This document shows positions 12,117 to 12,849 of a DNA stretch of 42,750 nt, piece after piece (position 1 is the first letter of the stretch; every line of letters begins with the position of its first letter). The notes beneath the pieces were generated by a model, which did no database searches, was not told the DNA's origin, and worked only from the letters and a program-made list of their open reading frames with translations. Source of the stretch: a virus (taxonomy: Duplodnaviria > Heunggongvirae > Uroviricota > Caudoviricetes); the IMG/VR virus record IMGVR_UViG_2703718822_000008, positions 1-42,750 of that record, one strand, 5' to 3'. The position numbers and the translations under genes were made by a program.

Positions 12117-12617
12117 TTATTCGCTCCCGTTATCACAAGGTTCCTTTCGGTGGAAGTAATTCCAACCGTTCCACTTCGCCAACTGATTACCGCTACCAAC
12201 AGGCATACGGTTTGGATAACCGGACTTACATTTAGCGGCTTTTGCTCTGTCCATTGCAGACAGTTTGACGAGTCGCTCTTTCCCGTATCTGGCAGTGGTT
12301 ATAAGTTTTGCTGACGCTTCCAGCGCATAATCCGGAGCAATGCGGCAGGCAAGGTTGAAAATGACGGCATTGATAGCGTTATTTGATAAACCGTGCTCAT
12401 CGCCCGGATCCGGAGCGACATCTGCATCAGCAAAAATGTAGCCAACGTTGATACCAGGTGACGCATCACCGCCAAGCCATTCAGCCATCATCATTTCAAG
12501 GTCGTTGACGCCGTCTTCCATGGACTGAGGTTCGACATCGGTTAACGTGGCATTTGATGCCACACCGAGCTTACGTAATGCCGCAAGAACTAAATCACCC
12601 TTCGTTGTCAGGTTCAT
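12117..12617 (-). CDS. Head-completion protein, P22 gp4-like
   Basis: From the ATG at 12617: [33 protein letters not shown]... matches the recalled P22 gp4 start MQIKTKGDLV; the track ORF extends to 12710 through the hexanucleotide repeat, probably spuriously. Confidence 0.75.
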
Positions 12618-12849
12618 CTGCTGCCGCCTTAGGTTTTCGACCAGGCTTTTTACGCTGTTTTTCTTCTGGCTCTGGCTCTGGCTCTGGCTCTGGCTCTGGC
12701 TCTGCAACATCCTTCAGAAGATCATCAGGATGTGCAAACCAGCCAGCATCCAGATATTCCTGAAGCTCTTCGGCTTTCACGATTTCAAAGTCGTATCCAA
12801 CGCCTTTCCATTTCTTCATGTCGCCATGACGAAATATCATGTGTGTCAT
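12595..12849 (-). CDS. Small hypothetical protein with an (EP)6 repeat, between coat and gp4
   Basis: ATG at 12849 preceded by GGAG; 85 aa [84 protein letters not shown]; overlaps the gp4 start by 23 nt. Confidence 0.5.
12668..12703. repeat. Perfect hexanucleotide tandem repeat (GGCTCT)6
   Basis: Direct reading: ggctct x6; on the minus strand it encodes [12 protein letters not shown] in the small ORF frame. Confidence 0.95.

Follow-up and report, generated by a model that had tools for sequence, protein, structure and literature searches.

A hexanucleotide repeat encoding a variable Glu-Pro linker in an orf69-family late gene of P22-like phages

The DNA considered here (the window) comprises the 42,750 nucleotides, positions 1 to 42,750, of the IMG/VR virus record IMGVR_UViG_2703718822_000008 (Caudoviricetes). 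Its minus strand encodes a phage late operon of the P22-like (Lederbergvirus-type) kind. A small open reading frame (ORF) between the genes for the major coat protein and the head-completion protein gp4 contains six perfect tandem copies of the hexamer GAGCCA, encoding the peptide (Glu-Pro)6. Judged from its sequence and position, this ORF is a genuine conserved gene orthologous to orf69 of phage P22, and the repeat is very probably a coding variable number tandem repeat (VNTR) situated in the linker that joins the domains of a genuine small late protein, shaped by replication slippage and by the tolerance of the protein for changes in linker length. The phenomenon is a familiar one, here met afresh in a gene whose function is unknown, and no new mechanism is invoked.

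The repeat and its host gene

An earlier note on this DNA, made from the sequence alone, had described a 36-bp perfect hexamer repeat at positions 12668-12703, which is borne out both by the sequence itself and by Tandem Repeats Finder (TRF). On the plus strand (GGCTCT)6 occupies exactly these positions, and in the coding direction the six GAG-CCA codon pairs run from 12702 to 12667. TRF delimits the array at 12665-12704, with a period of 6, 6.7 copies and 100% matches, and its score of 80 ranks first in the window. Outside the array, an 18-nt probe of three units has no match in the window, and none occurred in 100 shuffles that preserve dinucleotide composition. The perfect head-to-tail arrangement of short units is far beyond chance, as is characteristic of a microsatellite or VNTR.

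The array had been assigned to an ORF of 85 amino acids, preceded by its own Shine-Dalgarno (SD) sequence, following the coat terminator and overlapping the start of gp4. The ORF is indeed present, but it has 84 codons, the figure of 85 counting the stop codon. A GGAG motif stands 6 nt before its ATG and is invariant in the alignment of relatives, the hairpin following the coat gene folds and is conserved, and the overlap with gp4, counted from the true gp4 ATG at 12617, amounts to 23 nt. The encoded protein matches the PHROG family phrog_1175, of unknown function, over its full length (residues 1-82, E=5.3e-37), and the product of P22 orf69 matches the same family (E=4.5e-31). The Prokaryotic Genome Annotation Pipeline (PGAP) labels the ORF a hypothetical protein in E. 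coli genomes and GenBank labels P22 orf69 'unknown, putative'. An exhaustive search of 1.84 billion representative proteins yielded homologs with 43-53% identity, whose genes also sit between gp4 and a coat gene of the P22 type and likewise overlap the gp4 start, so that the window, P22 and the distant homologs share both the family position and a stop codon overlapping the start of gp4. A second protein search with the family profile returned mostly the same close relatives. The 'ORF69' of the Stx phage Sp5 is a different gene.

In P22, orf69 (BK000583, 6135-6344) lies in the same place, flanked by genes 5 and 4 and preceded by a stem-loop, with its stop codon inside gene 4 and a GGAG SD 5 nt before its ATG. 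Both proteins have an acidic linker, a basic tail (KGRKPKA in P22) and, in the N-domain, the motif EL.EY..DGW..HP..LL, at an N-domain identity of only ~33-38%. The P22 linker is short and non-repetitive (PVEADDV), whereas that of the window is a six-unit microsatellite which is polymorphic within its lineage.

Across 86 related loci, the ratio of nonsynonymous to synonymous polymorphism (pN/pS) in the N-domain is 0.087 in the annotated frame, as opposed to 2.27 and 1.25 in the other two frames, and 17 of the 27 variable sites fall at third codon positions. This pattern of substitution shows the N-domain to be under strong purifying selection, indicating that the protein itself matters, and the small protein is presumably translated.

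Copy number and the signature of probable slippage

The array is far from invariant among the relatives compared, ranging from 1 to 33 units across related phages, prophages and viral contigs, always in whole hexamers. This agrees with the expectation of the earlier note that slippage would alter the Glu-Pro tract without disturbing the frame. Perfect GAGCCA arrays of 1 (strain 0H26), 6, 8, 18 (EC19) and 33 (strain 98195) units were verified at the sequence level, in relatives differing at no more than three residues in the N-domain and at none in the tail. The locus occurs in 219 of 5426 complete E. coli genomes (~4%), with match lengths that step by 6 and imply 1-33 units. Among 47 short-class E. 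coli records, taken at even spacing down the ranking and with units inferred from match length (sequence-verified for 1, 6, 18 and 33), the shorter arrays number 1 (four records), 2 (seven), 3 (five), 4 (six), 5 (three) and 6 (eight) units, and the longer ones 7 (three), 8 (three), 9 (two), 15 (two) and 12, 16, 18 and 33 (one each). The closest relatives of the window, with flanks at least 97.8% identical, add inferred counts of 11, 13, 14, 17, 19, 20, 24 and 29 units. The locus is also held by eight phage records, with ORF lengths of 228, 246, 252 and 264 nt. In the 84 loci that were parsed, comprising IMG/VR viral contigs, earlier loci and the window, every tract has a length of 1+2n residues, all indels are whole hexamers and the arrays are homogeneous at the DNA level. 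Spacers of ~5 to ~70 residues occur in intact ORFs. A repeat_region is annotated at this locus in a single GenBank record, that of phage APC_JM3.2, and no paper on this repeat or on the function of orf69, nor a relevant one on small ORFs of the P22 late operon, was found in the searchable literature. Two assemblies labelled 'DH5alpha' (H25/H167, NZ_CP026085; H172, NZ_CM135829) carry the locus and agree with two E. coli W records in both match length and identity, and it is possible that these strains are mislabelled in RefSeq.

The internal make-up of the arrays speaks to how they change. In one lineage (loci L045, L060 and L063) the synonymous unit GAACCA has expanded to 10-12 copies, and elsewhere the single-base variant units GAGCAA, GATCCA, GAGACA, GAGTCA and GAGCTA (encoding EQ, DP, ET, ES and EL, respectively) are interspersed, sometimes duplicated as higher-order blocks. 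L045 and L060 have no differences in 3216 nt of flanking sequence and carry 11 and 14 units, respectively, while L063, with two substitutions in the flanks, carries 13. Where at least two loci have identical flanks of ~616 nt, more than one copy number is found in six of the 11 groups. The expansion of the GAACCA unit, the blocks of variant units and the length differences within this lineage argue for slippage rather than for codon-by-codon selection for Glu-Pro. Whole-unit differences between loci with the same flanks, together with homogenisation at the DNA level that includes the spread of variant units, are the hallmarks of a VNTR.

The probable course of events can be outlined as follows. 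In the E. coli lineage the linker is encoded by tandem GAGCCA units, and slipped-strand mispairing during DNA replication would add or remove whole units. As each unit is two codons, every such event would remain in frame and alter only the length of the disordered (Glu-Pro)n spacer, and a protein that appears to tolerate spacers of ~5 to ~70 residues would allow alleles to drift widely, faster than point substitutions accumulate. The 6-bp loci used in multiple-locus VNTR analysis (MLVA) of enterobacteria, some of them prophage-borne, are coding VNTRs that arise through slipped-strand mispairing. Short perfect units, whole-unit changes, the propagation of variant units and a unit that preserves the frame are common to such coding VNTRs and the window locus. 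Phase-variable contingency loci likewise have a mutable simple-sequence tract within a gene of a mobile element. The window locus, however, differs from them in a unit length that is a multiple of three and in the lack of an on/off switch, a promoter spacer and bimodal alleles; the unit is 6 nt long, all of the 84 parsed tracts are in frame and the array is internal to the ORF.

Protein architecture and the overlap with gp4

The AlphaFold2 model, built on a 12-sequence alignment, is confident over residues 1-48, with a predicted local distance difference test (pLDDT) score of ~90 for residues 1-40. It places a beta-hairpin at residues 2-14 and 17-25, one helix at 26-34 and a short one at 41-48, and leaves the Glu-Pro tract and the tail without structure (pLDDT ~50). 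On this prediction the tract is an acidic linker, disordered, that connects a small folded N-domain to a basic tail. Invariant residues of the N-domain in the family alignment are G9, G16, G36, W37, H40 and P41. In the tail, a basic GR(K/P)PK core recurs in P22 orf69, where the codons differ, and in the distant homologs, and the linkers of both P22 and the distant homologs are short, acidic, proline-containing and non-repetitive. A 93-aa E. coli protein (P0003) has a 13-residue tandem duplication within the N-domain, so that duplication-type events are not confined to the hexamer array.

A second architecture occurs at the same genomic position, in which a diverged N-module is followed by an inserted WDGH domain (PF25311, E=2.3e-39; phrog_3769) and then by an A-(EP)n segment and the basic tail. 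The array of this variant has 1, 2 or 5 units. The occurrence of the same array in two architectures, together with the AlphaFold2 model, points to the array being a spacer between modules. The variant gene, of ~600 nt, is found in E. coli prophages (L006, L094 and L095; matches H64-H75) and has an identical (EP)n-basic tail; PGAP calls it as split pseudogenes or a truncated coding sequence in two records, despite an intact ORF of 195-203 codons. No paper on the WDGH domain was found in the searchable literature.

The most plausible activity of the orf69 protein is perhaps nucleic-acid binding, a tentative suggestion drawn from two likenesses. Residues 20-39 align with 'ELQxYLDxGW' strand-helix modules (phmmer E-values of 1e-4 to 5e-7 among the 1.84 billion proteins), which occur in tandem in the C-terminal regions of homing-endonuclease-like proteins that carry GIY-YIG, HNH and NUMOD3 domains. 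An hhalign comparison of the N-domain with these modules gave a probability of 96%, a value inflated by the choice of the modules through the motif itself and covering 20 columns only; neither a Pfam model nor a solved structure was found for the modules. The tail, in turn, resembles an AT-hook. Set against the Arg-Gly-Arg-Pro core of that motif, the window has KKPGRKPK (G-R-K-P rather than R-G-R-P) and P22 has KGRKPK, while the homolog P0133 has the near-canonical KRRGRPPK. It is speculative that the N-domain and the AT-hook-like tail are the means by which the protein might bind nucleic acid.

Matches to procyclin, TonB and E2 linkers in Pfam and NCBIfam are compositional and far below the cut-offs (16.9 bits against 100; 12 against 315), and stray database names such as 'dihydrolipoamide acetyltransferase' are attributable to the Glu-Pro-type composition. 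The (Glu-Pro)n spacers of TonB and trypanosome procyclin and the Ala/Pro/Glu-rich linkers of the 2-oxoacid dehydrogenase E2 proteins share this composition with the tract, but not homology, and are plausible analogues as extended, length-tolerant spacers. The lambda DNA-packaging chaperone FI is also a small late protein, and its gene likewise stands after that for the major capsid protein and before the first one for head completion. On a reading of its sequence, it appears to be bipartite with an acidic flexible linker like orf69; as a homolog it was rejected (hhalign probability of 0.2%). The PADLOC defence models matched neither the window protein, nor the WDGH variant, nor P22 orf69.

Turning to gp4, the Pfam model begins at the ATG at 12617, which is also the start chosen by PGAP and equivalent to that of P22 gp4, and the reading of the repeat as Ser-Gln codons is, as the earlier note held, a spurious upstream extension of the gp4 frame. 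The sequence CCTAAGGCGG at the probable gp4 SD is present in P22 as well. The suggestion that copy number could also influence gp4 initiation found no support. Between the end of the array and the gp4 AUG lie 49 nt, and the SD falls outside the array. When the mRNA from the start of the small ORF to 55 nt into gp4 was folded with 0-33 units (a thermodynamic estimate that ignores translating ribosomes), the predicted accessibility of the SD stayed between 0.29 and 0.39 throughout. Predicted AUG accessibility rose from ~0.1 with at most two units to ~0.45 with at least four and was flat beyond, so that graded control of the gp4 ribosome binding site by copy number through RNA structure is not seen in the folding. 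The tail-coding region has only seven variable sites in 72 nt among the 86 loci, with a pS of 0.04 as opposed to 0.15 in the N-domain, and this near-invariance at all codon positions fits a double constraint on the protein and on the gp4 initiation region. Translational coupling of gp4 to the small ORF, independent of the repeat, is plausible; slippage never shifts the frame or the position of the stop codon, so the geometry of any such coupling would be constant.

The spurious frame has consequences for annotation, as the repeat leads some programs to extend gp4 and overlook the real gene, an error that grows with copy number. In phage Dewey (L002, PQ850600, 1630-2435) gp4 is called from the spurious upstream ATG and the real small ORF is omitted, and a further call, of 46 codons, overlaps the coat gene at its end. 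The extended gp4 call apparently also applies to IME10 (JF974339 / NC_019501, ~25708-25971), where gene 4 is the sole feature annotated over the small ORF. PGAP annotates the small ORF and gp4 correctly where some gene callers are misled by the repeat. The gp4 homolog of APC_JM3.2 (L001, MG197996, 1947-2447) is named 'recombinase RmuC', which is an annotation error.

Alternative explanations and surrounding features

The variation in length could be adaptive, with selection keeping the array pure so that the population samples different spacings between the N-domain and the tail and thereby alters the working of the protein, for instance its reach from one binding site to another, in the manner of a rheostat-like contingency locus. 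The extreme range of alleles, the purity of the arrays, the retention of one array in two protein architectures and the rapid change relative to the flanks would all suit such a tuner. However, no allele of a two-codon unit can turn the gene off, the sample has no preferred length or upper bound, and P22 and the distant homologs manage with short non-repetitive linkers. Many arrays are, furthermore, interrupted by ES, EQ, ET, DP or EL, as would be expected if they decayed with no selection on purity, and clonal pairs have identical counts, which makes adaptive tuning unlikely. Equally doubtful is the proposal that the array is a maintained 'evolvability device', whose stiff (Glu-Pro)n spacer of ~2 to ~66 residues would tune either the distance between two modules of the orf69 protein that contact nucleic acid, the N-domain and the AT-hook-like tail, or the transit time of ribosomes coupled to gp4; if true, P22-like phages would have a heritable means, quickly reversed, of adjusting a step in head completion or packaging. 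Control of gp4 dosage by array length, either through mRNA structure at the ribosome binding site or through the transit time of coupled ribosomes, would draw on the conservation of the 23-nt overlap in P22 and the distant homologs, on the near-invariant tail-coding region, which fits a second constraint at the nucleotide level, and on the predicted rise in AUG accessibility between two and four units. It is nevertheless rendered very unlikely by the distance of the array from the AUG and an untouched SD, by accessibility that is flat across 0-33 units for the SD and from four units upwards for the AUG, by a frame and stop position that slippage leaves constant, and by the purifying selection on the N-domain, which shows that the protein matters.

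That the small ORF is not a gene, and that the repeat lies in a non-coding leader or in a longer gp4 starting at 12710 with an N-terminal (Ser-Gln)n, can hardly be entertained. The ORF 12117-12710 is uninterrupted, and the records of Dewey and, apparently, of IME10 name it gp4, yet the low pN/pS is confined to the small-ORF frame, the Pfam gp4 model and P22 gp4 both start at the equivalent of the ATG at 12617, the small ORF has a full-length PHROG match, and in locus L043 the variant unit GAGCTA introduces a TAG into the Ser-Gln frame. The notion that the length differences are artefacts of sequencing or assembly in a low-complexity stretch is scarcely credible. Some assemblies are error-prone in repeats and a 1-nt discrepancy occurs in a few match lengths, but the differences among hundreds of independent complete genomes, isolates and contigs are exact multiples of 6, the units being perfect and the frames intact, and comparison of the window with four relatives maps the 1-nt offset (match lengths of 601 and 602 nt) to a run of five or six T residues in the tail of the post-coat hairpin, outside the array, with the T5 form present in seven of the 86 loci.

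Several observations nonetheless weigh against a coding VNTR whose length is freely tolerated. Near-neutrality of length is read from the spread of alleles, and the 80 viral loci are those most similar to a six-unit query, which biases the length distribution. All eight plaque-forming phage records have 2-8 units only, while arrays of at least 11 units come only from prophages and viral contigs, which may or may not be viable. For orf69 the searchable literature yielded neither proteomics nor ribosome profiling. Clonal pairs (two E. coli W records, AHM8C160RI/212RI, 0H23/0H26 and H5/H6) match at identical length, indicating that the locus is not hypermutable on laboratory time scales; the tract is fast on evolutionary time scales and not a laboratory-scale hypermutator. 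Long arrays as a mark of prophage decay were rejected, as the morphogenetic operon of the 33-unit prophage runs unbroken from the small terminase to the tailspike.

The coding VNTR draws attention to a conserved gene of unknown function amid one of the best-studied phage assembly operons. Models of orf69 are constrained by the purifying selection, by the design of N-domain, linker and basic tail and by the tolerance of large changes in linker length, and the locus offers a ready high-resolution typing marker for the P22-like prophages of E. coli.

The features of the locus and the neighbouring late genes are listed in Table 1. The hairpin directly after the coat gene (dG -21 kcal/mol, z -3.1 in RNA folding) is kept in relatives and combines a GC-rich stem with an immediate U-tract, and looks like an intrinsic terminator or a stabiliser of the mRNA 3' end. 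A consensus terminator scan did not list it, probably because an extension of the stem uses up part of the short T-run. This T-run (12864-12868 in the window) constitutes a second, homopolymer-length polymorphism at the locus, with T6 in 74, T5 in seven and T4 in one of the 86 related loci, the window having T5. P22 has an annotated stem_loop at the same place, the stem of which differs (GGGGC/GCCCC) yet still pairs.

Table 1. Features of the small late gene and of its surroundings in the window
Feature	Coordinates	Strand	Basis
Needle-like gene	9997-10698	-	late operon
gp10	10698-12116	-	PF11134
gp4 (head-completion / tail accessory factor), 166 aa	12117-12617	-	PF11650 P22_Tail-4, E=1e-58
orf69-family small late gene, 84 codons + stop	12595-12849	-	phrog_1175, synteny, PGAP
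C-terminal tail, basic AT-hook-like core; coding DNA also holds gp4 SD and start	12598-12666	-	alignment
Spurious upstream extension of gp4 frame, created by the repeat (Ser-Gln)	12618-12710	-	ORF 12117-12710; outside Pfam gp4 model
Probable gp4 SD AAGGCGG, inside the small ORF, 6 nt before gp4 ATG	12624-12630	-	read from sequence
(GAGCCA)6 = (Glu-Pro)6 microsatellite	12667-12702	-	sequence, TRF; predicted disordered
N-terminal folded domain, codons 1-48: beta-hairpin, helix, HPDD short helix	12706-12849	-	AlphaFold2, pN/pS
SD GGAG of the small ORF, 6 nt before ATG 12849	12856-12859	-	read from sequence
Hairpin GGGAGC-UUCG-GCUCCC + U5, directly 3' of coat stop codon	12864-12884	-	RNA fold
P22-type major coat protein gene (gp5), 431 aa	12893-14188	-	PF11651 P22_CoatProtein, E=9.7e-165
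Scaffold gene	14188-15099	-	late operon

Three pairs of IMG/VR loci (L031/L046, L010/L048 and L041/L057) have 0-8 differences in ~1.6 kb on one side of the small gene and 56-162 on the other, a distribution that indicates mosaic recombination joints near the coat/gp4 boundary. Elsewhere in the window, two sets of perfect 11-bp direct repeats (TGGACAACCGT and CGTTGGACAAC) are present at 30373-30467, within an ORF of 296 aa on the minus strand (29963-30853), where the peptide CPTVVQRLS recurs in the translation; lambdoid origins offer an analogy on which the repeats could be origin iterons within a replication-initiator gene. A 322-aa protein encoded on the plus strand (34947-35915) contains a long charged stretch rich in Ala, Glu, Lys and Arg (AEAKAKAEIEAAARREAEAK), which is encoded by a degenerate period-6 repeat at 35459-35542 (63% matches) and may form a single alpha-helix or a coiled coil.

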